This document shows, piece after piece, positions 3,038-46,088 of a DNA stretch of 64,000 nt (position 1 is the first letter of the stretch; every line of letters starts with the position of its first letter). Under the pieces are notes generated by a model. It was not told the DNA's origin. It saw only the letters and a list, made by a program, of their open reading frames with translations, and ran no database searches. Location of the stretch: the NCBI GenBank assembly GCA_000004695.1, contig CM000151.3:4064001-4128000 (forward strand), written 5' to 3'. The stretch is from Dictyostelium discoideum. Its lineage: Eukaryota. Made by a program: the position numbers and the translations under genes.

Positions 3038-4267
3038 TAAAATGAAAATAATAATAACTTATTTGGTATATCTTTTAAAAGATCCAAAAAAGAAAAAAAT
3101 ATATATTTATTTGAAATAAATTTGTATAAATAGAATAAAAAAAAACTTTTTAGCTTCACTTTTTTTTTTTTTTTTTTTTTTTTTCTTCAATTCAATTTTA
3201 TAACTTTTCTCTTCTTTATTTGAGTTGGTTGTTACTGTTATTTTTTTAAAAATATTTTTTTTTTTTTTCATAATATTATTTAAAAAAGTTAGATATAATA
3301 ATTAAAAAAACTATTTTAAACTACTACCATCCCTATTTTCATATTGATTTGATAATTTAGAGAAAGTTGGTAGATATTAAATAAAAAAAAAAGAAAAAAA
3401 AAAAATAAAAAAATTTATTATTTTTAATAAAAAATTGGAATATAAAACAAGAAAAAATATTGTGTGATTAATTATTATTATTTTTTTTTTTTTTACTTTG
3501 AACATACAAAATTATTATTGATAAAATAAAATAATCGATCTTTTACAATTTTTCTTAAAAATTGGAAGTCCTTTAAATATTATTTGGTTCTATTTAATTC
3601 CATGCAATGATATCATTCTTATTTAGTGCAATAAATAATTTCAATATTCAATATGGTGAATTAATTATTTTTATTATTTCTTTTTTTAATAACTAGATAA
3701 ACTAAATTTATAATGTATTTAAAAAATTCTAAAAATTTGAGACCCATATGATTTTTTCAAATTTGAAATATCCAAAAAATATTAAAACGAAATTTCGTCC
3801 AATTAATTTTTTTTCTATTTTTTTTTTTTTTTTTTTTTCCAAATGGCTAAATTGATTTTCAAAAATTTGATGTCTTTTGAATTTTTGAAAGTTACCAAAA
3901 AAAAAAAAAAAAAAAAAAAAAATTCGGAATTTTCAATTGATAAATAGTTTTACTTTTAAAAAAATAAATAAAAAAAAAAATAATAGTTATTATTGAATCC
4001 AATAATAATATTAAGTAATTTAATTAAATTATAACCCAAAAGATTTTAAAATCTTTTTTTTTAAAATTTATTTTATTATATTTTATTTTATTTATTTTTT
4101 ATTTTTTTTTTTCTTTTGCCAAAAAAATTTTAGAATCAATATATATATATTGTTTTGTTTTTTTTTTTGTTTTGTGTTTTGTTTTGATTTTTTTCTGATT
4201 TTTTTTTTTTTTTTTGTATACATATTTATAATCAATAGCTTTTAACAATTATAATTGATAATTGTAT

Positions 4268-5914
<1,647 letters not shown>

Positions 5915-7188: not shown

Positions 7189-7281
7189 TATTTTTGATTT
7201 TGATTTTTTTGATTTTTTTTTTTTTTTTTTGACTGTTCACTCACCTGGTGTTTTTTTTGGTATCAAAACAATTCCCAAATT
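6832..7281. repeat. Pair of ~45-bp direct repeats (6832..6870 and 7247..7281; ggt(T)n ggtatcaaaac[g/a]attcccaa) bounding a relatively GC-richer block
   Basis: About 85% identical direct repeats 415 bp apart. The surrounding 6540..7000 is GC-richer than flanking intergenic DNA and carries short inverted repeats (ctcactaaa...tttagtgag). Function unknown. Confidence 0.4.
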
Positions 7282-8030: not shown

Positions 8031-9042
<1,012 letters not shown>

Positions 9043-10384: not shown

Positions 10385-10894
10385 ATGATTTAATCTCCCT
10401 TTTCTCCCCACCCGATCAAAAATATTTTTTTTTTTTATTTTTTTTATTTGTAACACACAATTTAATGCATTAAAAAAATAAAAAAAAAAAGATAGTGGAG
10501 GTAATAATAATTGTTAAAGATAGATAATAGCAGTAGTAGCAATAAATAAATAAAGTTATTATATATGGTAGTGGTTGTAATTAACAATATTACTATTTTA
10601 TAAATCTTAATAATGTTGAGGAGGTGTGGGTTTGTGTTTGTTTTGGGATGGCGTGGGGGTTATTGGTTTTTTTTTTTTTTTCTTAGCTTTTTTTAGTTAA
10701 TAATAATAATTTTTCTTTTTATTTATTTTTTTTTAAAAAAATTTTTTTCTATGTGTGCATTCATTTTGATACATCATATCATAAAATCACAATTTTAAAA
10801 AAAGAGATTGATAAAAAAAAAAAAAAAAAAAAAAAAAATATACTCTATCACTTTTTTTTATTTTTTATTTTTTTATTTTTTTTTTCTTTTATTA

Positions 10895-10983
<89 letters not shown>

Positions 10984-11524
10984 TTTTTTTTCAAATAGAT
11001 AAATAATACATTATAGAGCTAATAATAATAATTGACTACTTTTATAATTATTTTATTTTTATTTTTATTTTTATTTTTATTTTTATTTATTTTTTAAAAT
11101 TCAACATATTTGTTACATTTATTTCCTATTCTAATAATAAATTTTATAATAATTATCTTTATTAACATAATTTAATTTATTTTCTCAATTTTAGATTTAC
11201 GCATAATACAATTATTTTAATTATTTTTTTTTCCAAATTTATTTTTTTATTTTTTAAAAACAATTCTTAAGGATATACATAATTATATATAAAAAAAAAA
11301 TAATAATCAAGAAGAAAAAAAAAAAAAAAAAAATAATTAAAAAACAATAATCAAAAAAAAAAAAAAAAAAAAAAAAAAAACATAACAAATTTATATATAT
11401 ATTATTATATTATATTATATTTATTTATTTTCCAAAACAAAAAAAAAAAAAAAAAAATAATTTCTTTTGTAACACTACCAATAATAAAATAAAAATTTTA
11501 AAAAATAAAATTAAATAAAATAAA

Positions 11525-11888
11525 ATGAAAGAAGAAGAAATTGCAAATTTAGGACCTCAGGAATATTTCAATTATTTAGAGGGAATAAATAAAAAGATTA
11601 TTATAGAATTAAAAACTGTTGCAAATATTGATACAGCCAAAGATACTGATAATTTACAAAATATATTAATTGAATCATCATTGGCATTGGAACATAATAT
11701 AAGGAATTTATTATATTTCGTTGATAAATGTCCAATTTCATATGATCAAATAGTTCATTATCATTCACATTTTAAAGAAGTTGTAAAGATTTTCTTTCAA
11801 GTTTGTCAAGATTTAATTAAAGCTGCTCAAGTATGTTATTATTATTATAATTTTTTTTTTTTTTTCTTCACTCCTCCTCTCCCCTCTT

Positions 11889-11926
<38 letters not shown>

Positions 11927-12230
11927 ATTAAAATTTATAATTATTTTAATATTTAGGCATTAATTTTAAATTCATGTGATTATTTAACAACATCAAATTT
12001 TGCAAAATGTAGAGGAGAGGCAATTAAAACTATAAAGAATACGATGGCAACGTGTAGTAATTTCGAAAAGTTATATTATAATCCAGATTTACAATTAGAG
12101 GATGAGGTTGATCTTGTTCATCAACAACAACAAAAAGAACAAGAACAACAACAAAAAGAACAAGAACAATATGAACAAGAACAATTAATTTTAAAACAAT
12201 TAAAAGAACAAGAATTAAAAAAACAACAAG

Positions 12231-12295
<65 letters not shown>

Positions 12296-13232
12296 AAACA
12301 CCAAGAAGAAAAAGAGAAAAATGATCAAAAAGAAAAAGAAGAGAAATTAAAAAAACAATTATTAGCAGAACAACAAAAACAAAAACAAGAGGAATTAGAA
12401 AGACAACAACAACAATTACAACAACAACAACAATTACTACAACAACAACAACAATTATTACAACAACAACAACAACAACAACGTTCAGATCCAATTATTA
12501 TACCACCAATTACATTAAAAACATCACAATCAGATTTATTAAGTGGTGGATTATCACCAAAAGTGAATTCACCAGGTTCACCCAATTTAGGTAAATTTAC
12601 AGAATCAGCAGAACGTGTTGCAAATTTTGATAGAGGTACAGCAAATATTATATTGAATATGAATAAGATCAAAGAGATATCATTGAGTGGTGATAGTGAA
12701 CAAGCACCAGAGATTGTCACAGCGGCAAGAATCATCTCTGAGAATATCGCTATCATATCCAAGGAATTACGATACAAAACATTGGGTACGAATCTTAGTG
12801 AACATTTCGTATCGGTTGTACAAGTTGCAAGATTAGCCATAAAGAATAAATCAGATCAATTCTATCAGGATCAATTGGAATTGGCAATTGAAAAATTTAA
12901 TGATACAATGCGTAAAATCATTTACTCTGTAAAGAGTATCTCAAAGAGTTCAATGAATCTTAGACAATTTGGTGTTGATGAGTCATCTTTAGGTAGATCA
13001 CCAGTTGTATCACCAGAGAAATCAATTTCACCAAGTTTTACAAGTAGTACAAGTGAACGTATTTTATCACATGAAATTAAAAATCATAATAATAATAATA
13101 ATAATTATAATAATAGTAGTACTAATAATTTACAAACTTCATTTTCAACACCTTCATTATCTTCAAATCATTCACAACAACCAAATCAACAACCATTACA
13201 ATCACCTTTATTAATTAATCAATTACAATCTA

Positions 13233-13263
<31 letters not shown>

Positions 13264-14050
13264 TCTTTCAAATTCTTTAAATTCTATACAACTACCTCAA
13301 GCAACAACTACAACAACAACAGCAACATCTCCATCAACCTCTACATCAACATCAACCTCAACATCACCAAATTCATCATCATTATCAATTTCAGATCAAG
13401 ATAAACAATTAAAAAGAAAAGAAAAACAACATCAAATCGTAATTCCAAAAGATGTTAAAGATTCAGTTGCAAATCAACAACAACAGCAACAACAACAACA
13501 AAATGGTACTACATCACCAAGAAATAATGAATCATCAGTAACAGCAGCAACAACAACAACAACATCAACAACAGCATCAATTACAACAAATGTTAATACA
13601 ATACCAAATTTCCCACCAAATAAACAATTACCAGCAACACCAACAACAGGTACACCATCAACATCAACACCAACACCACAAACACCAACATCAACTTCAC
13701 AAAATGATAAACAGAATGAAAATAATAATAAAGAGAATTTTGTTGACAAACAAAAAACATTGGGTAAATTATTTTCAAAGTTTGTTCATAAAAAGAGAAC
13801 ACCATTACCAGGATTTGATTCATCCAATTCATCATCACCATCAAATAATTCAAATACAACCAATTCATCATCTCATTCTAGTACAAACAGTTCACCAATG
13901 GAAACTTCACCAGGTGTTGAATCTCCAAAAATTACAAAAAGTCCTTCTCAAAATAATATTTTAGTTGATAGTTTAGATATTGGTTCTGATAATCAACAAC
14001 AACAACAAGATAAATTAACAACCACAACTTCAACAACGACAATAACAATA

Positions 14051-14111
<61 letters not shown>

Positions 14112-16816
14112 TACAACAACAACAACAACAACAGCAACAAATACCAACAACACCAAATAAATTATCAAATTCAATTGCAATGAATTCATCAAATAGATTA
14201 ATGACACCAAAGAAAGAAAGATCATTTACAATTGGATTGGTTAGTGGTAAACATTCATGTGTTGTAGTTGAAACACCAAAATCAAAGAAATTATTTCAAC
14301 ATGAATCAGCTAAACAAATACTTTCAATTATTTCAATGAATTTCCCAAGTTTTGAAAAAGAATTTCAAATGCAAAATAGTGAAGTAATCTCTAATATAAT
14401 TGAACAAATTGGAAATGTTATAAAGAATTATCATGATGAAGTTAGTGAATCATCATCATCGTCATCATCATCAACTACATCACCAAATAATATTAATACA
14501 CCATCTGATTGTTCACCAATTTTAAATTCTGAAAATTCTAAAGATAGTCATAATTTATCATCAATTAATAATAGTTCATATGATCCAGTTTCACCAGCAC
14601 TTAGAAAAATGTATGAAAATGGATCATATGATAGTAAAGAACATTCTAGATCATCTATTCAATCAAAGATTACACGAAAATTAGGTACAATTAGAAAGAA
14701 AGGACCAAGTCCATTTAATATGTTATTAAATTCAAGTACAGGTTCATTAAGTAGTTTATATTTAGATCAATTGAATGGTGGTAATGGTGATTCATCATCG
14801 TCATCATCTTCATCATATAATTTAGTTGGTGGTAGTGGTATTAGTGGTTATGATAATCAAAATGAAATTGATGCAAGTGAACATTTGGTTAGTACATCAA
14901 GTTTGTTCACAGAGGAAGCTATTGAATTGGTTAGTAAATGTTTTGAAGCGTCAATCATTGTTAATCATTCAGGTGGTACAAGTAGTGAAATTAAAGCATT
15001 GTTTTCATCGACATTGGATCATTTGGAATCAATGTTACAATCATCGGTAAACTTTGGTAAGATTGACCCATCCTCTTTCTGTATGACTTTCTTAAAGAAT
15101 ATTAGACAACACATTCCAACCATGAAATCAAAAGGTGGTAAATGTGATCCAACATTGGTAACAGCGGCAACTAAATTATTTAGACATACAATTCTATCGA
15201 ATCTTGATAAATCAATTCACTCCCTGTGTCATAGTGTTAGGGTGTTGGCAATTCAAATGACAATCATTGTAATAAGCATCAGTGCTAAACCATGGGATAT
15301 AAGCTCACAATTGCAACTGTTTGCATCGGCAAAGAGTTTCATCGATTCATTGGTATCATTATTGGATGCAGTGGAGAATAAAATTTACATTTCAACCAAT
15401 ACCAACATTCAAGATGATGTCGAAGTACCAACTATCGATGATACAGAGGATACAAATATTTGGGAGGAGGCTGATAGTCCATTAACATTTGGTTGGATCT
15501 CTGATGAAGGTAGTAAAACAGGTCGTTACGTTCCAAAAGCTGGTACATTAAATAAATTAATTTCAGCATTAACTCAAGATAATAAACATGATATATCACG
15601 TTATACTAAAACGTTTTTACTCACCTATCAATCATTTACAAATCCTTGGAAATTAATGGAGAAATTGATTCAACGTTATAATGTACCTTTGGATGAGAAA
15701 CCAGATGTTAGAGCAACAACTCAATTACGTGTGGTTTCATTTATGCAAACTTGGATAGAAAGAAATTTCAATGATTTCGATGATCAACTAATTGGTCAAC
15801 TAAAAGAGTTTAGAACTCGTTTACTAATGGATAATAATAATGATTTAGCGGTTATTTTAGGTGGTTTAATTAAAAAGAAAGAGGCCGAACGTTCACTTTC
15901 AAAGGAAAGATCAACCAATCATTTAACTTTCCCAGAATTAATGATACCAGATGGTCAAAAATCACCAACTGCCCTCTTTTTACTATTAAATGAATCAGAG
16001 ATCGCTAGACAATTAACTCTTATAGATTTCAATATCTTTTCAAAGATTCAACCAACTGAACTATTGGATCAATCATGGAATAAGGATTCATTGAAATTTA
16101 AATCACCAAATGTTATAGAAATGATCAATAGGGCAAATAAATTCTCATTTTGGGTTTCTTCACAAATTCTTTGGCAAGAAGATATTGAAGAGCGTGTTAA
16201 AGTATTTGAAAAGTTCATTTTAATCTCAAAATATCTAAGAGAAATGAATAATTTCAATACTTTGTTAGCCATTTTCACAGGTTTAAATACTGCACCTATC
16301 CTAAGATTAAAGAAAACCTTTGCTTTGTTATCTCCAAATTCTTTATCGATTTATAATAGTTTGGAGAAATTAATGAATTCAAGTGGTTCTTATAAAAACT
16401 ACAGAAGTGTTTCAAAAAATCCACCATTACTTCCTTATTTACCTGTTATCCTTTCCGATCTAACTTTTATGGAAGATGGTAATCCCGATAAAATAAATAA
16501 TCTAATCAATTTCCAAAAGAGAGAACTCATTTGTAGAGTAATTTCAGAGGTTCAACAATGTCAACAACAAACAAAATATGAATTCCCTGTGGTTGAACCA
16601 ATTCATACTCTTCTCACTGAATTACCTTCTTCAACTCCTTCTGAATTATATCAACTCTCTTTAATTCGTGAACCAAGAGAAACTAATCAATCAAATGCAA
16701 ATAGTTCAATTTCTTCTGGTTCAAACTTTTTATCAAATTCTTCAAATCATAATATTGGTAATAATAATGGTTTTGATACTTTAAAAAAATATTATAAGAG
16801 TAGTAATAATAATTAA
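11525..16816 (+). CDS. Ras guanine-nucleotide exchange factor (RasGEF-N + Cdc25-homology catalytic domain); 2 exons (11525..11830, 11957..16816), intron 11831..11956 (GTATGT...ATTTAG)
   Basis: Exon 1 ORF 11525 ends at ...KAAQ|GTATGT. Exon 2 reads ALILNSCDYL...MATCSNFEK in frame with ORF 12044..16816. The C-terminal half has RasGEF-N (GTLNKLISALTQDNKHDISRYTKTFLLTYQSF...) and the Cdc25 catalytic core (...ALFLLLNESEIARQLTLIDFNIFSKIQPTELL...FILISKYLREMNNFNTLLAIFTGLN...). The N-terminus has a Gln/Glu-rich coiled coil. Confidence 0.85.
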
Positions 16817-35955: not shown

Positions 35956-36491
35956 GTAGTATAAATAATAGTATAAAATTAAATATAAATAATAATCCAA
36001 AGTATAAGATGGGTTTTGGATTTAAACATGGTGGAAAGAATTTATCATCAAATTTTTCAATTAATGATCATAGTATTGATACTGATAATCCTTCAATGAC
36101 AAGTTCTTCAATTACTAGTAATTCCTCAATGAATAGTTTTTCATCCTCTCCAAGTAGTTCTCCACCAAATGATGATATCAATGATAATAGACATACAAAT
36201 AATATCAATAGAGTAGCTACAAATGGTGATGGTAATGTTGATGGTGGTGGTGGTGATAATATTGGTGATAATGATTCAAGCTCTTTAAATAGTAGCAGTT
36301 ATCAAAACCATCATAATCATCATAATCATCACCGACACAATTTTAATAATGATAGTAATAATAACAGTTATTCCCCATCAACTAGTCATAATGGAATTGG
36401 AGGTGATGATTTCCTCTTACCATCCCCTTCTCTATTACCCTCCTCTTATAATTTAACTGTAACTGTTTTACCTGATCTTAAATATAAATAA
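33612..36491 (+). CDS. Atypical Rab/Ras-like small GTPase with huge poly-Q/poly-N insertions and a long low-complexity C-terminus; 2 exons (33612..33750, 33934..36491)
   Basis: Exon 1 MKKLFDIISPSKNIQQQSASGKESSSSSSSSSPSPSKNRSCFNGIG ends at |GTTAGT. The intron holds an (AAT)n run, with acceptor ttttatag|. Exon 2 has G1 (IVLLGGYQVGKSS), switch I (YIPTIGID) and G4 (ALFANKSD), but G3 reads FWDVAYAE instead of WDTAGQE. It runs in frame into ORF 34140..36491. Confidence 0.7.
33808..33900. repeat. (AAT)n microsatellite in the intron of the Rab-like gene
   Basis: Perfect trinucleotide run seen in the sequence. Confidence 0.9.
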
Positions 36492-36621: not shown

Positions 36622-36903
36622 AGGGTAATTAGCAACTTATCAGATTGATTATTTTAATATACCTAAGATGTCAAGGTAATGGTAGAATCATTTGTGTCCA
36701 TAATTATTATGATAAGAGCGGCCCAACTCCAATTAATTATTTAAAAAAATAAAGTATAAAGCTTTAACAATAATTAATTAATAAATTTATGGTATTTTTT
36801 AATAATTATAAAAAAAAAAAAAAAGAAAAAAAGATAAAAATATTTTTTTTCATAATTTTCTCAACTTAGTCCTCGCACATAAAAAAAAAAATGAATGCGT
36901 TCA

Positions 36904-37227
36904 TTTTTTTTTTTTGAATTGGATAACGCAATTATTATTTGCTTCTCCTTGAGATGCTAGATCTCATTTTATTTTTTTTTTTTTTTTACAGGGTCTTTTT
37001 GATTAAAACATCTTTTTTGTCCAAACTTTTTTCTAAATCTTTTTTTATTTTATCGTCTGGTTCGTGATTGATGTTTATGACGTATTTGAATTGTTTTTTT
37101 TTTAATTGAGTTTTATCCACAATTTCGCTTATTTTTTGTAGGCATTTGTGTTGCTTAATATTTGTGGTGTTGTTTGTGATTTTCATTTTATTTTCTTTCT
37201 ATCTTTTTTATTTTTCTGATTAACTTG

Positions 37228-37271
<44 letters not shown>

Positions 37272-38977
37272 TTATAGAAAGTACTGAGTGAATTATTGTA
37301 TTTTTTGAGATGTTTAGGAAGTTCTATTGCGGGTGTTGATGATGATTTGTGACACCCCTTGTCCTGTTTTATCAATTGGTGCGTGGTGTGTTATTTTGTT
37401 TTTATATTGTTGATTTATTGAGTAAATTTTATTTGTTTTTATATTTGTTTCAGTTAGAAGTGCTGCGTCCAGCTTGTTGTTGTCTAAAACGGTGTTTATT
37501 ATGCTGGCAGATTGGATGGTGTTGGATCCTTGGACGTTCCAAACACCTATTCTTATTGTGTTTTTCTTTATAGTTTTATTTGGGGTAGATTTTTATCTAC
37601 CTTTTGAAGTTTCTGGTTTATTTTGTCTTCTAACTGATCTTTACTTTGTTCATTGTGTTGTTGGTCTTGTGTGTTTGTGGGGTTTTTTGATTTATTGATT
37701 TGTTTTAGAATTTCCTTGTTGAAGTTGTCTATATCTTCATCCATTTTTGTTTTTATGCTTTTTTGTCCATATTCACCCAATTTTGGTTTGACTGGTGTTT
37801 TGTTGGTCTTGTTTGTTTTGCCTTGTTGTTTCTTTTTTGGTGTGTTTAACAATTTACTTGGTGAATCGATAATTTTCGATGGTGTACCATAGGTTGGGCT
37901 GAAACTCATGATATGTTTTATTGGAGAGGAGAAGAACCATTGATTTGAAGGGATTGAAAGTGGGAATTCTATTTTTCTTATTGCATCAGTGTTTGGGCTG
38001 GTGAAGTCGAAGATATCATTTGCCTCTCTAAGTTTTTCTTCCGTTGTTAGTCCCTTTGTTTCGCCGTGTTGTTTTATTGGTGTATTGTATGGAGATGGTG
38101 GTTCGATAGGTTTTTCTGATTTTGTTTTAATTTCTTGATTGTTTATCGATTGTGTATTGATCTCATTCTCTATTCTTGTTAGTTCATCTACGTTTTCTAG
38201 TGATGCTTCTATTACCTTTTGAGCTGTATCATCTAGGGCCATAAATGTTTTATCATTAGATGAGGATGTGATTGGTGGGATAATGATTGTTCTTTTTCCT
38301 TGTTTTGGTATTTGTTCTGATGTAGATTGTGGTTGTTGTTCATCTGATTGTTTTTTATTTTTGTTTTCTTCTTGATTTTCTGGTAATGAGGTTTGATCTC
38401 TCCATCCTTTGTTGGAGTGTCCAATTAATGTTAGATTGTCTAGTTCAATGATAGTGTCAAATTCTTCTACGACTCTTTTCACTGTTTTGATAATTAGAGT
38501 TTCGCCTTTAATTTCTGATTTAATTAGTTTACATCCTTCATTTTCTATTACCCATTCTATTTCTGTGAGTGATTTATACCAATCAAAATCTGTATACATA
38601 TTTTTTGGTCTTATAGTGGTTATAAATTGTCCTTTTAATTCTGCATCAAACATATTTACAAAATAGATTACTGTACTAATACTGTCTGTGAGAATTTTGA
38701 ATGTATTATTACTTTTGATTAAAACATCTTTTTTGTCCAAACTTTTTTCTAAATCTTTTTTTATTTTATCGTCTGGTTCGTGATTGATGTTTATGACGTA
38801 TTTGAATTGTTTTTTTTTTAATTGAGTTTTATCCACAATTTCGCTTATTTTTTGTAGGCATTTGTGTTGCTTAATATTTGTGGTGTTGTTTGTGATTTTC
38901 ATTTTATTTTCTTTCTATCTTTTTTATTTTTCTTTAAAAAGTTAAAAATCTGGAAATTTTCTAATTAACTTGGTTCC

Positions 38978-39031
<54 letters not shown>

Positions 39032-39310
39032 TCTTTTTTATATGAAAAATGAAATAATCAAAAAAAGAGATTGTTGTTGTTGTTTGTTTTTTTCGATCTG
39101 ATTATTTTTTGCTTTTTTTTTGAAAATTTTGCTACGCAAAATTCTCAAAACGAAACAAATAATAAATTACAATAAAGTAAAAAGATGGCTTTTTAAAATA
39201 GTTTATTTATTTATTTATTTGTTTTTTAAGTCTTTTTTATATGAAAAATGAAATAATCAAAAAAAGAGATTGTTGTTGTTGTTTGTTTTTTTCGATCTGA
39301 TTATTTTTTC
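36904..39310 (-). mobile_element. TRE5-like tRNA-gene-targeted non-LTR retrotransposon, internally deleted (ORF1 present; no APE/RT ORF2), ~2.4 kb, 5' end facing the tRNA-Leu gene
   Basis: ORF1-like 444-aa ORF (37568..38902). An oligo(A) tail (plus-strand T-run 36906..36916) marks the 3' end. The 5' end lies ~46 bp upstream of a tRNA gene in head-to-head orientation, the hallmark TRE5 position. About 230 bp of the 5' module including the first 66 ORF1 codons is duplicated near the 3' end (36985..37215 vs 38703..38935; ORF 36986..37186). ~85-bp subrepeats sit in the 5' UTR region (39031..39115, 39225..39307). Confidence 0.6.
37568..38902 (-). CDS. Retrotransposon ORF1-like protein (444 aa) of the TRE5-like element
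   Basis: Long ORF inside the element. A partial second copy of its N-terminus (36986..37186) lies in the duplicated module. No enzymatic motifs, consistent with a non-LTR ORF1. Confidence 0.5.
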   Translation of the reverse strand: MKITNNTTNIKQHKCLQKISEIVDKTQLKKKQFKYVININHEPDDKIKKDLEKSLDKKDVLIKSNNTFKILTDSISTVIYFVNMFDAELKGQFITTIRPKNMYTDFDWYKSLTEIEWVIENEGCKLIKSEIKGETLIIKTVKRVVEEFDTIIELDNLTLIGHSNKGWRDQTSLPENQEENKNKKQSDEQQPQSTSEQIPKQGKRTIIIPPITSSSNDKTFMALDDTAQKVIEASLENVDELTRIENEINTQSINNQEIKTKSEKPIEPPSPYNTPIKQHGETKGLTTEEKLREANDIFDFTSPNTDAIRKIEFPLSIPSNQWFFSSPIKHIMSFSPTYGTPSKIIDSPSKLLNTPKKKQQGKTNKTNKTPVKPKLGEYGQKSIKTKMDEDIDNFNKEILKQINKSKNPTNTQDQQHNEQSKDQLEDKINQKLQKVDKNLPQIKL

Positions 39311-39356
39311 AATGAATGCGTTCAATAAGGATTAAAAAAATAAACTTTCATATAAA

Positions 39357-39439
39357 GCAAGGGTAGGAAAGTCTGGTTAAATCCGTGTGACTTAAGATCT
39401 CATCCATTCGGTTCGCGAGTTCGAATCTCGCCTCTTGCA
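39357..39439 (+). tRNA. tRNA-Leu (anticodon UAA), type II with long variable arm
   Basis: Acceptor stem GCAAGGG/CCTCTTGC plus discriminator A, T-arm GCGAG-TTCGAAT-CTCGC, anticodon loop C-T-TAA-G-A, long variable region. The anticodon call is the least certain part. Confidence 0.65.
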
Positions 39440-39466
39440 AGTTTTGTGGAAACGAACATTAGGTCA

Positions 39467-39479
39467 GGTGTTCGATTCT
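39467..39479 (+). promoter_or_regulatory. Extra B-box (ex-B, GGTGTTCGATTCT) ~28 bp downstream of tRNA-Leu
   Basis: Matches the pol III B-box consensus GGTTCGANTCC. Ex-B boxes are a known feature of many Dictyostelium tRNA genes. Confidence 0.4.
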
Positions 39480-39624
39480 ATGCCAATATTCCCAAATATT
39501 GGAGGCTAATATTTAAATTTTGCGATCAATAAAACGTTTTTCAATTGTGTTGATTATATTATGAAAATTATTCCTTGAAAAAGATCCATAGTCTAAAAAA
39601 AGAGAAGAACAACTTAAACAAGAA

Positions 39625-41085
39625 TTGAACAACTATTGCGAAGAAACCTCACTCAAGTACATCTCCGCGAGAATCAAGAAAAGACACAATGATTTCACCA
39701 TCAACGCAGTAAAAGATGCACAAGGTAGAACAATCAACAAACAGGAATTGATCGAAGAAGAATACGTAAAATATTACTCAAATCTTTATGACTACAAAGA
39801 AGATGACGCACCATCTCATTATGAAATGTTGGAAAATTGGACAGTGACCAGGGACTCAACATGGGACAACCTTGAAAATGAATTCACAACACAAGAGATC
39901 CTAGAAGTAATAAAACAATTGAACCCACACAAATCTCCAGGCCCAGATGGAATTCCAAACTTATTCTACATAACACACAAAGAAAAACTAGCTCCAATAC
40001 TGGCCTCAGCATTCAACGACACTCTAAGAAATCCTCATCTAATTAGCAAAAATTACAAAGAAGGCCTCATTATCACGATACCTAAAAAGGGAGACCCCGA
40101 ACTAATCAAAAACAGAAGACCAATTACACTGGCTAACTGTATATATAAAATCCACTCAAAACTAATAAACAATAGAATAATCCCAATACTAACGAAAGTG
40201 ATCAACCACAATCAAAAAGGTTTCGTACCAGGCAGATTCATTATAGATAATATCATATCAATGAACGAATTAATCAACTATTGTAATGATAAAAGAATTA
40301 ACGGAATAATTACACTATATGATTTCGAAAAAGCTTTTGACTCGATTTCACACGGTTCAATACTCAGATCACTACAACACATCAACATTCCAACCAATAT
40401 AATCAACCTGATAATGAATCTACTCACCAAATCTGAAGCAAGAATTGAAATTAATGGTAGAACTACTATACCCTTTGAGATCAAAAGAGGAGTCAAACAA
40501 GGAGATCCACTATCACCCACCCTGTTCGTCCTTGTAATAGAGGCTTTAGCTAGAAAAATTTTACAAGATGACCGAATTACTGGCCTTCCTCTAAACAACA
40601 GCGACCACAGAGAGAAATTCCAAAGCTTTGCAGACGACTCGGCTTCAATGGTCCCAGACTCTCAACAACTTGAATTAGTACTACAACACTTCAATTCATT
40701 TTGCAAAGCCACTTCCTCAAAACTAAACATCGACAAATCTTCATCAATTCTTATAGGCAACCCAGACAATACCAACCAAAGAATACCAATATCTACAAAT
40801 CCAGAAAGATACTTGGGATACTTCTTCACAGGCAAAGGGATAACAAGAAAAATACCAGAAATATTAAACACAATAAGATCATCCTTAGTACTATGGAAAA
40901 CCACTGACTCAACAATCAAAACCAAAACCAACATCCTCAAAGCATTCGCACTCTCTAAATTAACCTACTATTCATATGTAGAGAACTTTAAGGAAGAGGA
41001 ATTAAACCAAATCAATAAATTAGTCGAATGGTTTTTATCGGCACCAAACACAAAAATGCTAGTGGATTTCAAGTTATTAATTTAA
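39625..41085 (+). CDS. Non-LTR retrotransposon ORF2 fragment: reverse transcriptase domain
   Basis: RT motifs are present: ...SPGPDGIPNLF..., RPITLANCIYKIHSKLINNRI, YDFEKAFDSISH, KRGVKQGDPLSPTLFVLVIEAL, FQSFADDSASMV. There is no endonuclease domain upstream. It overlaps ORF 41028 out of frame. Confidence 0.7.
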   Translation: MNNYCEETSLKYISARIKKRHNDFTINAVKDAQGRTINKQELIEEEYVKYYSNLYDYKEDDAPSHYEMLENWTVTRDSTWDNLENEFTTQEILEVIKQLNPHKSPGPDGIPNLFYITHKEKLAPILASAFNDTLRNPHLISKNYKEGLIITIPKKGDPELIKNRRPITLANCIYKIHSKLINNRIIPILTKVINHNQKGFVPGRFIIDNIISMNELINYCNDKRINGIITLYDFEKAFDSISHGSILRSLQHINIPTNIINLIMNLLTKSEARIEINGRTTIPFEIKRGVKQGDPLSPTLFVLVIEALARKILQDDRITGLPLNNSDHREKFQSFADDSASMVPDSQQLELVLQHFNSFCKATSSKLNIDKSSSILIGNPDNTNQRIPISTNPERYLGYFFTGKGITRKIPEILNTIRSSLVLWKTTDSTIKTKTNILKAFALSKLTYYSYVENFKEEELNQINKLVEWFLSAPNTKMLVDFKLLI

Positions 41086-42209
41086 TGAGAACCAAAGAAG
41101 CAGATACCACTAAAGTAGGGGGCTGGAACATTTGGAATATAGAATTGAGACAACTGGCGCAGAAACTTTGGATCATAAACCAGTTCATCCTAGCACTAGA
41201 AACCAAACAAACAAACTCATCTCATCACAAAAGCTGGGAATATCAGATCCAAAAAAACAAATTCACATCCAGATACCTAAAAGAAAACTTAGATGAATGG
41301 AACAAAATAAGAATAAAAAAAGCAATCTTCAACAATAATCTCACATCCATAAAAAACGAAAATGGACAACCACTTTCACTGGCAGAATGGTATACCACAA
41401 TTCAAGACCAAAATCCAACCATCCCTAAAACGGAATTCCAATCATCTCTAAACTTAAGAGGCTACAGCTATAATCAACTCTTCAACAACATACTGAAGAT
41501 AAAAGACCCTAAAACAAGAGACACAATGTTTAGATTCCATGCCAGATGCCTTCCAATAAACTACCTTCACAACAAACAATGCCCACTCTGCAAAGAAGAT
41601 ATGAGCAAAGACCCATACGGTCACCTGTTCTTCTCATGCAAGAAAACAAAACAATTCATAAAAATAAATAAACTCAAAAATTTCATCTATATTACCACAG
41701 GCAAAGGTAAAAACTGGCACCATACAAGAATTAGGCAAAATAACAATTTCATTAATAGAATAACTCCAAAATTATCACCGACAGCCAAAAAAGATCAAGA
41801 AGTGAATGCAGATTACGCCAACCACAGATTCCACAAAGAATACTTTGAATGGAACTATAAAGCAATAGACTATGATCTAACCAGATCATTCGCATATAGA
41901 AACCTAATGGCCCTTATCCTCCACAACATTTGGATTTGGATTTGCAATCAAATATACAGTGAAGATCCTTTAACAGATGAATCACTATCATACAGCTCCC
42001 TTCTAAAGAAATGGCACAAATTGGCCACTCTAGAATACATCAAAAAAGCAAAAGATCTGAAAAACTTATCAGCAAAAGACCATAATAACTTCAAAGATCC
42101 TAAGATCCTTCTCACTTCAACGATCAAGCTAAGAAAAACAACAGCTAATTACTATTGTATTCCAGAATCATCTCTCCCAAATATTATATCTTTTGATCAA
42201 TTCATATGA
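41028..42209 (+). CDS. Retrotransposon ORF2 C-terminal cysteine/histidine-rich (zinc-finger-like) domain, separated from RT by a frameshift
   Basis: Motif RFHARCLPINYLHNKQCPLCKEDMSKDPYGHLFFSCKKT. Related domains recur in the minus-strand copies at 42680..43393 and 44028..44669. Confidence 0.55.
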   Translation: MVFIGTKHKNASGFQVINLMRTKEADTTKVGGWNIWNIELRQLAQKLWIINQFILALETKQTNSSHHKSWEYQIQKNKFTSRYLKENLDEWNKIRIKKAIFNNNLTSIKNENGQPLSLAEWYTTIQDQNPTIPKTEFQSSLNLRGYSYNQLFNNILKIKDPKTRDTMFRFHARCLPINYLHNKQCPLCKEDMSKDPYGHLFFSCKKTKQFIKINKLKNFIYITTGKGKNWHHTRIRQNNNFINRITPKLSPTAKKDQEVNADYANHRFHKEYFEWNYKAIDYDLTRSFAYRNLMALILHNIWIWICNQIYSEDPLTDESLSYSSLLKKWHKLATLEYIKKAKDLKNLSAKDHNNFKDPKILLTSTIKLRKTTANYYCIPESSLPNIISFDQFI

Positions 42210-42306
42210 TTAAAATAACCCTTCAGCTTAAATGATAAGCCTTTAAATAAATATTAAATAAAACTCGTATTAACACAGATGGACATATATCAATCTTGTT
42301 AATCCA

Positions 42307-42352
<46 letters not shown>

Positions 42353-42354
<2 letters not shown>

Positions 42355-42640
42355 ATTCCTTGAAAAAGATCCATAGTCGTCTCTTCTTTTATTTTAAGAA
42401 AATATTAGAATTAATAGAACCTCATGGATTGAAAAACCTGATATTCATTGAAAAGAATATAGTATTCCACAATCAGTGCTTCCAAATCTTATCTGCTTGA
42501 TCAATTCATCTAATTAAATACAATTTTATTATTTGTATAATTTGGTTTATTTGATTTATTTGATTTATTTGATTTATTTGATTTATTTGATTTCATTTTT
42601 TATTAAATACCAACATATATAAAAACAGTATACCTTAAAA
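42353..42640 (+). mobile_element. Short TRE3-like fragment (5'-terminal ~30 bp fused to 3' UTR-like sequence with (TTTGATTTA)n) directly abutting the previous copy's poly(A)
   Basis: The element 5' sequence repeats at 42353. Downstream, 'gtattccacaatcag...gatcaattcat..' resembles 42130..42230 of the full copy. Confidence 0.35.
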
Positions 42641-42679
42641 AATGATAACCTCACTATATTTAAACGGTGCTACTGTAGG

Positions 42680-43393
42680 TTATTTCATCCCGATGCAATT
42701 TTTATATATAAAATATTTTAATTTGTCGTGGTTTATGAAGTTGATTGTGTGCTGACAATTGAAAAACAAATGACCATAGGGATCATTATTCATTTCATTG
42801 TTGCAAATGGGGTAAACTTTGTTGTGTAGATGATTAATCTGAAGACATCTAGCATGGAATCTTTGCATTGTATCACGGCCTTTTGGATCTTTTAATTTTT
42901 GAATTTTGACAAATAGTTGGTCGTATGTGTATTTCCATAATAGTTGTATTGATTGTTGGTGCGAAGTAAGAAGTAAATCTGAATATTTCTTACCAATATA
43001 GTCTTTTGATTTGCATTGGTGATTGTTGAGTATTGTCAAGTAGATTTCTTTGAGTGTTGGTGGTAGTGGAATATTATTAGTGGTTAATGTTTGAGAGGTT
43101 TGATTTTTTATTAATATTGGTTGTAGGATTTGAACTTTATCTTTTAGATGTCCAATTTGAGTTGCATAGTTTTCCCATTCTTTTTTGATTTTTATAAGGT
43201 ATGGAGAAGAGATTGATTTGTTGATGATTTGATCCATCCAACTTATCATGTATATTGAATTGTTTGCAGATTTATGCATTTGTAAAAATCTGTTGTATAT
43301 CCAAATCTTTTGAGCAACTTGTCGTAATTGTATATTCCACATACCCCAACCACCTTCTTTTAATGGTTTTAATGATCTATCATAACACATCAA
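42680..43393 (-). CDS. Retrotransposon ORF2 C-terminal Zn-finger domain fragment (copy A)
   Basis: ...KDPKGRDTMQRFHARCLQINHLHNKVYPICNNEMNNDPYGHLFFNCQHTINFINHDKLKYFIYKNC... Confidence 0.45.
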   Translation of the reverse strand: MMCYDRSLKPLKEGGWGMWNIQLRQVAQKIWIYNRFLQMHKSANNSIYMISWMDQIINKSISSPYLIKIKKEWENYATQIGHLKDKVQILQPILIKNQTSQTLTTNNIPLPPTLKEIYLTILNNHQCKSKDYIGKKYSDLLLTSHQQSIQLLWKYTYDQLFVKIQKLKDPKGRDTMQRFHARCLQINHLHNKVYPICNNEMNNDPYGHLFFNCQHTINFINHDKLKYFIYKNCIGMK

Positions 43394-44027
43394 AGGTATT
43401 TTTGCACGAGAATGGATGGTTGATGTGTTGTTTTCAATGGAATTGGTATTGAGAGTTGGTGATTCAGAATTTGCGGGAGAATTCTTAAACCATGAGATTA
43501 ATTTATTAATTTGAATTTCTTCATCTTTTGTAAATTCTTCAAGATATGATAAATATGTTATTGGTGATAGTGAGTAGGTGTTTATGATGGTTGTTTTGTT
43601 TTTAATGTTGTGCCACTAGTTTTCCATAGTACTAATGATTTATTCAGTGTTTTCATTGTTTCTGGTAATTTCCTATGTAAACCATTATGATTAAAGAAAT
43701 AGCCTAGGACTCTTTCTGATTGATCTTTTTTGGTTATTGGTATTCTTTTTGATTGTGGAATATTGTTTATTATGTGTTTATCAGTGATTTTGTGGGGGTT
43801 GATTTCTATTATTGCACTTTTGTCAAAATTTAATGATGATGATGTTGAAGCACAGAAATTATCGAAATGTTTGATTGATTGTTGTTGTTGTTCGTAGAAT
43901 TTTTTTTTTTTTTTTTTGATATAAATAAACTATTGTAGTATACAATTAGTATGTTATTTTTATTTATTTATTTTGGGTTTTTTAGTTTTTGTGAATTTAA
44001 AATGGTATGTTATTTTAGATTAGGTAA

Positions 44028-44669
44028 TTAATAATTAATTGGTGGTGTAATTGTTGGAATTGGTTCATTTGTGTTTATGCTCCATTCTTTTTTAAATTTT
44101 TTGATGGTTTCAGACCATTGGGTTTCTTTTTGAGTTTTTGTGAAGTTGTTTTTAATTGAGTATTGGTTAAAGTTTGATAACGTTCTTGAATATTCCAATC
44201 TTATTAGCTTGTGCCATTTTGATTTTAATATATCATAATCTAGTGTTGTGTTGTTTATTTGGTTGTTCCAATTGTCAATTGATTGAGTTATATTGATGTC
44301 AAATAATGATTTGCATAACCATATCCATATTTGGTGAATAACTAATGAGATTATGTTCCAATATGCATGTGTTCTGACTAGATCAAGATTTGTGTTTATA
44401 TAATTCCAGTTGAACCTGTATTTTTTATATTGTGCGTTTTCTGCAAAATGAAAATTAATATTGATAGTTGGATCTGGTTTAAATGCTTTGTTGTTTGTTT
44501 GTGGTTTATAAATGAGTGTGTATAATTTTGTTGTTCGGTTTTTTGTTAGTGACCAGTTTTTGTTTCCATTGCAATTTTTATATATAAAATATTTTAATTT
44601 GTCGTGGTTTATGAAGTTGATTGTGTGTTGACAATTGAAAAACAAATGACCATAGGGATCATTATTCAT
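44028..44669 (-). CDS. Retrotransposon ORF2 C-terminal domain fragment (copy B)
   Basis: MNNDPYGHLFFNCQHTINFINHDKLKYFIYKNC..., near-identical to copy A at the shared region. Confidence 0.45.
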   Translation of the reverse strand: MNNDPYGHLFFNCQHTINFINHDKLKYFIYKNCNGNKNWSLTKNRTTKLYTLIYKPQTNNKAFKPDPTININFHFAENAQYKKYRFNWNYINTNLDLVRTHAYWNIISLVIHQIWIWLCKSLFDINITQSIDNWNNQINNTTLDYDILKSKWHKLIRLEYSRTLSNFNQYSIKNNFTKTQKETQWSETIKKFKKEWSINTNEPIPTITPPINY

Positions 44670-44766
44670 TTCATTGTTGCAAATGGGGCAAACTTGTTGT
44701 GTAGATGATTAATCGGAAGACATCTAGCATGGAATCTTTGCATTGTATCACGGCCTTTTGGATCTT

Positions 44767-45042
44767 TTAATTTTTGAATTTTGACAAAAAGTTGGTCGTA
44801 TGTGTATTTCCATAATAGTTGTATTGATTGTTGGTGCGAAGTAACGATGGAGGTGCAATGATATCTAATTGATTATCAAGTCCTTTGTTAAGTGAGAGTT
44901 GGTTTGTTGGGGTTTGTTTTTTAGGTGTGTCGATTTTTGCACTTTTGTTTTTTGTTGTTGAGGTTGTGGAGGTATTATTTGTATTGGTTGTGTTGTTATC
45001 TGTATGATTTAACTGTAATTCAGTTGAGTGATCATCAGCCAT
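44767..45042 (-). CDS. Retroelement ORF1-like N-terminal fragment (MADDHSTELQL...), fused downstream to ORF2 C-terminal sequence
   Basis: Small ORF at the tRNA-proximal end of the minus-strand element. Its C-terminus continues into sequence homologous to KDPKGRDTMQRFHARCL, implying a large internal deletion. Confidence 0.3.
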   Translation of the reverse strand: MADDHSTELQLNHTDNNTTNTNNTSTTSTTKNKSAKIDTPKKQTPTNQLSLNKGLDNQLDIIAPPSLLRTNNQYNYYGNTHTTNFLSKFKN

Positions 45043-45227
45043 TGTTGAAAAGTATACAGGACGATAGCCCTTGCTTTATTGAGCAAAAATAGGGTAAAAT
45101 TAAGAGGAATGAATGTGGCGGTGAAGATATAACAGTGATTTATTTATTATATGTATAAATTCTCGTTTATTTCTTTGTTTCGTTTCTTTCTAAACCTTTT
45201 TCCACTAATTTTTTAACATTCGTAGAA

Positions 45228-45239
45228 CAGAATCGAACC
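45228..45239 (-). promoter_or_regulatory. Ex-B box (GGTTCGATTCTG on the minus strand) ~31 bp downstream of tRNA-Gly
   Basis: Plus-strand 'cagaatcgaacc'. It has the same spacing as the ex-B of tRNA-Leu. Confidence 0.4.
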
Positions 45240-45269
45240 TATGATCATTCTATTTTTATAAAAATTTTG

Positions 45270-45340
45270 TGCGTATGCTGGGAATCGAACCCAGTTCGCA
45301 TCCGTGGCAGGGATGCATCATACCACTAGACCACATACGC
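45270..45340 (-). tRNA. tRNA-Gly (anticodon GCC), 71 nt
   Basis: Minus strand: GCGTATGTGGTCTAGTGGTATGATGCATCCCTGCCACGGATGCGAACTGGGTTCGATTCCCAGCATACGCA. It has a canonical cloverleaf, anticodon loop CTGCCAC, and T-loop GGTTCGATTCC. Confidence 0.8.
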
Positions 45341-45587: not shown

Positions 45588-46088
45588 ATGAGTAACACTG
45601 AAACTACACCCACCAAAACAAAAAGCAGCAGTAGTAATAATAATAGTATTAGTAGTAGTAGTAGTAGTAATGTAGTAAGCAAAAAGCAAATACCATCACC
45701 AAACGTAGAGTTATTAGAGAAATTAGCAGCAACATCTATTCCCATCGCTTTACCACCTTCATATAAACCTGAAGCTAAATATGAAAAATATGTCAACCAA
45801 TTAGTAGGTAAATTTATTATGTCTGCTGCAATGTTTTCAAAAGATTTTTCAACTCCTAAAATAAAAAATATAGTGTAACTATTAAATAAAATAAAATAAA
45901 ATAAATAATAGTAAATAAAATAAAATAAATAATTAATTAAAATTTACAAATTTTATCATTTATTAGATTAGCACAAAAAGGTTTATTAATAAAAGTAAAT
46001 GAAGCAATTCAAATTATAGATGGAATAAATAAAGGAACTTTACATCAAGAATTAATTAGTATATCAGGTTCAAAATGTAACTATTATT

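Follow-up and report, generated by a model that had tools for sequence, protein, structure and literature searches.

Which elements occupy the 9,096 nucleotides (nt) that separate two host genes on chromosome 2 of Dictyostelium discoideum AX4, and how did they come to be stacked there? The interval lies in a stretch of 64,000 nt (assembly GCA_000004695.1, contig CM000151.3, positions 4,064,001 to 4,128,000), hereafter called the window, to which all coordinates refer unless a comparison locus is named. Our results indicate with high confidence that the locus is a nest of TREs, i.e. tRNA-gene-targeted retroelements devoid of long terminal repeats (non-LTR), built up by at least five separate events of target-primed reverse transcription around two convergent genes of RNA polymerase III (Pol III). 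The anatomy, distances, orientations and family relationships of these elements, as well as their target site duplications (TSDs) and one empty site, were observed directly. They confirm an earlier note, made from the sequence alone, that had proposed TRE5-like elements upstream and TRE3-like elements downstream of tRNA genes, in at least five copies or fragments; five pieces were found. Retroelement sequence makes up 7,769 nt of the interval. The upstream host gene, an open reading frame (ORF) rich in polyglutamine and polyasparagine (polyQ/N), ends at 36491 and the next one, a profilin-domain gene according to the annotation of the orthologous locus, starts at 45588, so that the stretch from 36.5 to 45.5 kb is free of host genes, as had also been noted. 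Within the interval, the source annotation names proteins only as 'hypothetical protein' or 'Reverse transcriptase domain-containing'. The window as a whole has a G+C content of 14 to 35% and contains polyQ and polyN genes. Sixteen comparison loci (L001 to L016) were used, L010 being the orthologous locus in the D. discoideum assembly GCA_054883475.1.

The two landmarks of the nest are tRNA-Leu(UAA) (39357-39439, plus strand) and tRNA-Gly(GCC) (45269-45340, minus strand), which are convergent and carry internal B boxes at 39418-39428 and 45281-45291, respectively. Both were detected by ARAGORN and by the Rfam model RF00005, with 63.6 bits for tRNA-Gly and 49.1 bits for tRNA-Leu (threshold 29, in a focused run with relaxed speed filters), which bears out the two tRNA genes of the earlier note. 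A run at the Rfam gathering threshold over 10 kb reported tRNA-Gly and missed tRNA-Leu, a filter artefact caused by the speed filters. The anticodon stem of tRNA-Leu(UAA) displays one U-U mismatch. The B-box core GTTCGAWTC occurred exactly four times in the 64-kb window, compared with 0.2 occurrences expected; these are the two internal boxes and one external B box (ex-B) per tRNA gene, located on the strand of the tRNA and 30 nt after its end. The ex-B core of tRNA-Leu, GTTCGATTC, lies at 39470-39478 (plus strand) and the ex-B of tRNA-Gly, GGTTCGATTCT, at 45229-45239 (minus strand). A distance of about 30 bp had been anticipated, and such boxes have been described for ~80% of D. discoideum tRNA genes (PMC5911963).

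Upstream of tRNA-Leu, the interval is occupied by a 2.4-kb element (36904-39310, minus strand) that contains ORF1 only and shows the layout AB-ORF1-BC. Its 5' end (39310) is 46 nt from the tRNA gene (39357), head-to-head and on the opposite strand, just as the earlier note had it, and within the published TRE5 window of 40-54 bp upstream in opposite orientation to the tRNA (PMC5911963). The element is bordered by a perfect 14-bp TSD, AATGAATGCGTTCA, at 36890-36903 (distal copy) and 39311-39324 (proximal copy), this 14-mer having just these two occurrences in the window. Subgroup TRE5-A.2 is defined by the AB-ORF1-BC arrangement, and duplication of the B-module at the 3' end is unique to TRE5-A among TRE5 elements (PMC3159450); published TRE5-A.2 copies display a large ORF2 deletion together with a 72-bp BC deletion that leaves a C-module of ~87 bp. 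The upstream element has this published architecture, position and orientation. Seven other 2.4-kb copies (L002 to L008) were 99.0-99.7% identical to it over its full length, each with its 5' end 37-51 nt from a tRNA gene on the opposite strand.

Following the element from its 5' end, the A-modules that form the promoter (39003-39310) consist of one 199-nt unit and a 108-nt partial one, with a repeat spacing of 199. The 5' B-module (38692-39029) holds the ORF1 start and is 98% identical to the 3' B-module of L003, the locus with a full-length comparison copy of 5,649 nt (published TRE5-A consensus, 5,647). ORF1 (37568-38902, DDB_G0274721, exact match to XP_644007.1) is intact and codes for 444 amino acids (aa) with a mass of 51.2 kDa, the published TRE5-A ORF1 protein being 51 kDa (PMC5911963). 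Residue I10, the site of the published I10* mutant, is present. This ORF1 belongs to a cluster of 17 proteins sharing at least 90% identity, one member of which, DDB_G0269058, neighbours DDB_G0269056, a gene labelled 'TRE5-A ORF2'. The 3' B-module copy with the end of ORF2 (36997-37331) starts at the ORF2 deletion junction at 37331, where the alignment to L003 jumps from 12190 to 15324, i.e. 3,133 nt of ORF2 are absent. The duplication of the B-module appears as a 221-nt exact repeat, 36997-37217 being 100% identical to 38713-38933. Relative to the full-length copy in L003, a BC deletion of ~70 nt was found at the 36996/36997 junction, leaving a shortened 81-nt C-module at the 3' end (36916-36996). 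Its nucleotides T15, C26, A35 and C38 (numbered from the 3' end) are each identical to the residues of the published hairpin and mutagenesis study (PMC3159450). Stem-loops are predicted in the last 54 nt of the element (-11.3 kcal/mol, z = -3.1), and the element terminates in an oligo(A) tail of 12 nt (12 T on the plus strand, 36904-36915).

Some TRE5-A.2 copies of the second assembly displayed long head-to-tail arrays of the 199-nt A-module (L007 3628-7905, L002 6226-7909 and L008 6214-7905), that of L007 comprising ~20 units versus 1.5 in the window copy. At another comparison locus (L015, 4431-4468), the 5' end of a TRE5-A.2 faces the start of a TRE3-A element across just 36 nt. ARAGORN detected no tRNA gene in this gap, hence the tRNA gene that served as the target was apparently lost or overwritten.

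Downstream of tRNA-Leu lies an element of the second type, a 5'-truncated TRE3 (39594-42352, plus strand, DDB_G0274837) in the same orientation as the tRNA gene. It displays a reverse transcriptase (RT) domain (40078-40821; Pfam RVT_1, E = 2.5e-34), a CCHC zinc finger (41580-41639) and a 41-nt poly(A) tail (42312-42352). A direct repeat of 26 bp, or 30 bp with the leading AAAA, forms its TSD (39568-39593 and 42353-42378), and 2 nt of microhomology were observed at the 5' junction. This junction is 154 nt after tRNA-Leu and the TSD starts 128 nt after the tRNA and 87 nt after its ex-B. The earlier note had placed the RT-containing element ~118 bp downstream of tRNA-Leu, a figure that needs to be corrected because the target duplication was counted as part of the element. 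L009 and L011 contain longer copies, to which the window copy shows 99.3-99.8% identity and relative to which its first 2,497 nt are missing.

The orthologous locus in GCA_054883475.1 lacks this element altogether. There, 39593 is joined directly to 42379 with a single target copy, which makes it a precise empty site. Outside the insertion, AX4 and GCA_054883475.1 differ by 1 substitution in 20.6 kb, together with differences in homopolymer length. A precise empty site in a near-identical assembly means that the plus-strand TRE3 inserted very recently, which suggests that this particular TRE3 family is still active. Since repeats are hard to assemble, one might attribute the absence to assembly collapse, or else to a precise deletion. 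We consider this very unlikely: the junction contains exactly one 26-30-nt target, i.e. the pre-integration state, and the adjacent 2.4-kb TRE5-A.2, like both TRE3-B copies described below, is resolved in that assembly. Moreover, non-LTR elements are not known to be excised precisely, and the deletion reading is weakened accordingly. As an individual copy, the recent insertion itself is dead, owing to its truncation and to a frameshift that splits ORF2. The latter is due to a 1-nt deletion at 41049 that is private to this copy. At 41097-41111, the copy also shows a small complex alteration in which 3 nt are lost; the 99.8%-identical relatives in L009 and L011 display neither this change nor the deletion at 41049.

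To which TRE3 subfamily does the plus-strand element belong? The full-length body of its family, found at L011 2637-7857, measures 5,221 nt, with an ORF2 of 1,034-1,059 aa, and intact copies exist. Published lengths are 5,229 for TRE3-A, 5,279 for TRE3-B and 4,734 for TRE3-C, and no full-length copies are known for TRE3-D (Table 1, PMC5006619). Since the length fits, TRE3-C and TRE3-D are excluded and TRE3-B is the other family of the locus, we infer that the plus-strand family is TRE3-A. A literature search for labelled gene identifiers or 'TRE3-A ORF' labels for this family found none. The window copy lies inside the published TRE3-A range of 14-228 bp downstream of the tRNA. In the region of the RT end and zinc finger, the plus- and minus-strand families share 65-70% identity at the DNA level and 36-45% at the protein level, in keeping with the two subfamilies, ~60% identical in the zinc finger domain, that the earlier note had recognized.

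The minus-strand sequences downstream of tRNA-Gly both map onto a single 5.2-kb element of L011, which codes for a 334-aa ORF1 and a 1,173-aa ORF2 with endonuclease and RT domains. By its sequence, this family is TRE3-B: the ORF of the distal piece is identical at 229 of 236 aa (97%) to DDB_G0291686, whose product in dictyBase is 'TRE3-B ORF2' (Table 2, PMC12405889). The distal TRE3-B (42694-43897, DDB_G0274839) corresponds to positions 3421-4625 of the reference, is truncated at both ends, and displays 97.9% identity to L011 and 98.4% to L001. In its zinc finger (~42790), the first CCHC cysteine is replaced by tyrosine (VYPICNNEM instead of VCPICNNEM). The proximal TRE3-B is composed of two parts. 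Its 3' part (43900-44844, reference 4350-5276) contains a 213-aa ORF (DDB_G0274719, exact match to XP_644010) with a zinc finger at 44631-44690 and an 18-nt poly(A) tail (43900-43917), and is 98.5% identical to L011 12175-13119. Its 5' part (44846-45218, reference 1-372) comprises the complete 5' untranslated region (UTR) and codons 1-66 of ORF1 (ATG at 45042; DDB_G0274717, exact match to XP_644011), has its N-terminus in common with the 334-aa ORF1 P0146, and is 96.7% identical to L011 7864-8197. Reference position 372 is thus joined directly to 4350 at 44844/44846, so that 3,977 nt are missing inside the element. The 'minus-strand array' of the earlier note therefore stands as far as its two pieces are concerned; in detail, one is an internally deleted TRE3-B and the other a doubly truncated one.

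Two other partitions of this family were considered and rejected. The proximal piece had been suspected to be a chimera, with its 5' end from one subfamily and its 3' end from another, on the grounds that a 277-nt 5' segment is unmatched in L001 and has an AX4 twin near a gene of the plus-strand family. This was ruled out, as the entire segment is found in L011 within one 5.2-kb TRE3-B. Likewise, the second copy in L001, taken at one point for a separate subfamily, proved to be a TRE3-B from which 706 nt have been deleted internally. Such internal losses are a recurrent feature of TRE3-B, with 3,977 nt lost from the window copy and 706 nt (5' UTR/ORF1) from the L001 copy (10773-15355), and parallel the ORF2 deletion that defines TRE5-A.2. 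A further rearranged copy occurs in L013 (7216-10084), where an inverted 5' piece (reference 39-886) adjoins a direct 3' piece (3275-5276) within a single 12-nt TSD, an arrangement that resembles the twin-priming inversions of human L1.

How far the proximal TRE3-B extends towards tRNA-Gly determines its spacing from the ex-B. A 9-bp repeat, TTCGTAGAA, abuts its poly(A) tail (43891-43899) and recurs 1 nt from the ex-B (45219-45227). The 9-mer was present in only 17 of 100,000 shuffles of the flank (chance about 2e-4), and if it is taken as the TSD, the 5' end falls at 45218, 50-51 nt after tRNA-Gly. The length of the reconstructed element, which depends on this TSD-defined end, would then be 5,276 nt (published TRE3-B, 5,279). 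The TRE3-B copies in L012, L013 and L014 likewise start directly after an ex-B, 39-57 nt from their tRNA genes, with a 12-nt TSD in L013 and a 12-nt TSD containing one mismatch in L012. Alternatively, the element could start at the shared 5'-UTR motif GAAATAAACGAG (45173-45180), ~90-95 nt after tRNA-Gly and thus close to the estimate of the earlier note, in which case the 9-nt repeat would be coincidental and there would be no TSD. This reading draws on the L001 copy, in which a poly(A) is followed by an element start exactly at GAAATAAACGAG, and on the first 38 nt (45181-45218), for which no independent copy was found among the sequences compared apart from a weak gapped resemblance of L013 to 45177-45205; nor did a search of L012 to L016 find an independent full-length TRE3-B 5' end. 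In L001 and L011, the copies have their 5' ends 45 and 59 nt further inward, respectively. Yet, the L011 start being 14 nt further in than that of L001, 5' ends in tandem arrays are evidently subject to variable truncation, and the 9-mer lies precisely at the junction with the poly(A) tail. On balance, the start at the 5'-UTR motif is unlikely and a 5' end at 45218 is probable, which most likely reduces to 50-51 nt the distance of ~100 bp from tRNA-Gly given for the array in the earlier note. Of the 9 nt of the distal TTCGTAGAA copy, 7 are the 5' end of the distal TRE3-B, which leads to the view that the second TRE3-B struck the same spot and pushed the first one outward.

Placement relative to the ex-B was also compared between subfamilies. 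In all five cases examined (window 45219-45239 and 43891-43899; L012 ~8290-8311; L013 ~7192-7216; L014 ~8252-8258), TRE3-B 5' junctions or TSDs were located 0-4 nt after an ex-B and 39-57 nt from the tRNA, the published TRE3-B range being 34-188 bp downstream. The three TRE3-A junctions (3/3) were 80-154 nt out. Placement thus appeared subfamily-specific and tighter than the published windows.

A last piece, between the plus-strand TRE3 and the distal TRE3-B, is a relic of an older plus-strand element of TRE3 type (42456-42533), with similarity over ~78 nt to the ORF2 end and 3' UTR. Over these 78 nt, it shares 83% identity with an element of the same type in L007 that ends in poly(A) and lies downstream of a tRNA-Glu gene, and 79% with the TRE3-A 3' end. 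The adjoining 42534-42693 contains a short tandem repeat of the TTTGATTTA type and a relatively G+C-rich stretch (42660-42693).

Could these repeats belong to other families, their closeness to tRNA genes being coincidental? DIRS-1, Skipper, DGLT-A and DDT come to mind, as the earlier note had itself acknowledged, and two candidates, DGLT-A and Skipper-2, do target tRNA genes (PMC5006619). Their distances are quite different, however: DGLT-A is found 13-33 bp upstream and Skipper-2 8-23 bp downstream of tRNA genes (PMC5911963), as opposed to 46 nt upstream and 50 and 128-154 nt downstream here. No LTRs or inverted terminal repeats were found in the interval, and long direct repeats are confined to the B-module duplication and the pair of TRE3-B copies. 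All complete 3' ends display poly(A) and a TSD, the sole Pfam domain is RVT_1, full-length relatives carry endonuclease and RT domains like non-LTR elements, and the minus-strand family is labelled TRE3-B by dictyBase. What was found is thus a set of poly(A)-tailed non-LTR elements with TSDs, and we regard membership of those other families as extremely improbable. The features of non-LTR elements were also found in the TRE3 copies of the window, with an RT domain, CCHC zinc fingers and poly(A) tails of 41 and 18 nt. The endonuclease domain was seen solely in full-length TRE3 relatives, because the corresponding region is missing from the window copies. TRE3 elements in general reside 40-150 bp downstream of tRNA genes and in the same orientation, and the placement observed here (128-154 nt after tRNA-Leu; 50-51 nt after tRNA-Gly) agrees with this.

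A different origin of the nest would be recombination or segmental duplication of pre-existing elements rather than repeated targeted integration. Some rearrangement did occur, as seen from the loss of the 3' end of the distal TRE3-B and from the internal deletion of the proximal one. As the main source of the nest, however, this process seems most improbable, since TSDs of their own, distinct from each other (14, 26-30 and 9 bp), were found at the junctions of three elements, each element lies at the distance and in the orientation typical of its family, and one of them, the plus-strand TRE3, has a demonstrated empty site. In the literature, TREs are reported at 61% of the tRNA genes of D. 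discoideum, with TRE5 and TRE3 together at 13%, and TRE tandems are attributed to sequential or repeated targeting (PMC5006619). The term 'textbook integration hotspot' of the earlier note is an accurate one.

A few points weigh against the explanation given here. The 160 nt between the relic and the distal TRE3-B (42534-42693) matched nothing among the compared sequences. The distal TRE3-B is devoid of its last 651 nt, and the 3,977-nt deletion of the proximal copy is compatible with an origin before, during or after integration. As for names, 'TRE5-A' is based on architecture, published positions and the adjacency of gene identifiers, and 'TRE3-A' on length and elimination.

Taking these data together, we infer the order of the older events and the protein contacts behind them as follows. 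First, an old plus-strand TRE3 would have inserted downstream of tRNA-Leu, of which the ~78-nt relic remains. Second, a 5'-truncated TRE3-B may have inserted 1-3 nt after the ex-B of tRNA-Gly, its terminal 651 nt and its tail being lost afterwards. Third, a second TRE3-B with a complete 5' end and the 3,977-nt internal deletion would have inserted at the same spot, duplicating 9 bp. Fourth, the non-autonomous TRE5-A.2 would have inserted 46 nt upstream of tRNA-Leu, head-to-head, with duplication of 14 bp. The most recent event was the insertion of the 5'-truncated TRE3-A downstream of tRNA-Leu (128-154 nt), with duplication of 26-30 bp. The relative timing of the first four steps is only partly constrained, the second preceding the third and the fifth being the last.

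In the published model (PMC3159450, PMC5911963), the B box of the tRNA gene would recruit TFIIIC and TFIIIB, and the TRE5-A ORF1 protein would bind TFIIIB subunits, leading to insertion ~50 bp upstream. Elements such as TRE5-A.2 would be mobilised in trans by the ORF2 protein of full-length copies. For TRE3 elements, the same model holds that either B box, internal or external, would serve as the signal, insertion taking place downstream and in the orientation of the tRNA. The endonuclease of the element would then nick the target and its poly(A) RNA would be reverse-transcribed in place, which would explain why TSDs and poly(A) tails are present and why 5' truncation is frequent. The anatomy of the locus corresponds exactly to the products of target-primed reverse transcription at Pol III genes, i.e. 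poly(A) tails, TSDs that vary in length, frequent 5' truncation, and an orientation and distance fixed relative to the tRNA.

The locus was already annotated, the phenomenon is already known, and our findings fit published TRE biology, so that their significance beyond correct annotation is small. Two aspects are mildly new, i.e. the TRE3 insertion that is polymorphic and hence very recent, and the close spacing of TRE3-B to the ex-B. That both hold jointly, with the plus-strand TRE3 integrated de novo after the split between AX4 and GCA_054883475.1 and TRE3-B integrating 0-4 nt from the 3' edge of the ex-B, is a tentative proposal to which we give slightly less than an even chance. If true, the de novo copy would be natural evidence that TRE3-A is still retrotransposing in laboratory lineages, and the 0-4 nt rule would point to a factor bound to the ex-B, presumably TFIIIC, as the direct ruler of TRE3-B. 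The empty-site allele provides the exact pre-integration sequence of a TRE3 insertion, together with its 26-30-bp TSD and microhomology, and could serve studies of TRE3 integration, TRE3 being much less studied experimentally than TRE5-A. More generally, the locus shows, in a clean and fully resolvable form, how TRE5 and TRE3 exploit Pol III genes as safe harbours where genes are densely packed, and how repeated targeting stacks elements outward from a tRNA gene.

In all defining features that were compared, the copies of the locus agree with TRE5-A.2, TRE3 in general and TRE3-B. Compared with known systems, the upstream element is like TRE5-A.2 (formerly DRE, a non-autonomous deletion derivative of TRE5-A) in layout, deletions, ORF1, C-module, TSD and position; the only difference worth mentioning is its 1.5 A-modules, other copies having from one to ~20. 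The plus-strand element shares with TRE3-A (formerly Tdd-3) the RT domain, the CCHC zinc finger, poly(A), TSD, orientation relative to the tRNA and the full length of the family. It differs in being 5'-truncated by 2,497 nt, frameshifted and polymorphic between two near-identical assemblies, and its name is putative. The minus-strand copies resemble TRE3-B (formerly RED) by 97% protein identity, by the same tRNA orientation, by the 34-188 bp range and by a tandem formed through repeated targeting. They differ in that both are defective, and their insertions 1-3 nt after the ex-B are tighter than the ~100 bp downstream given in general terms in the literature. Beyond Dictyostelium, yeast Ty3 and Ty1, which also inhabit a compact genome, likewise find safe harbours by taking the Pol III transcription complex as a landmark. 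Yet, they are LTR elements that rely on an integrase and insert upstream only, so the resemblance is convergent, not homologous (PMC5006619, PMC5911963).

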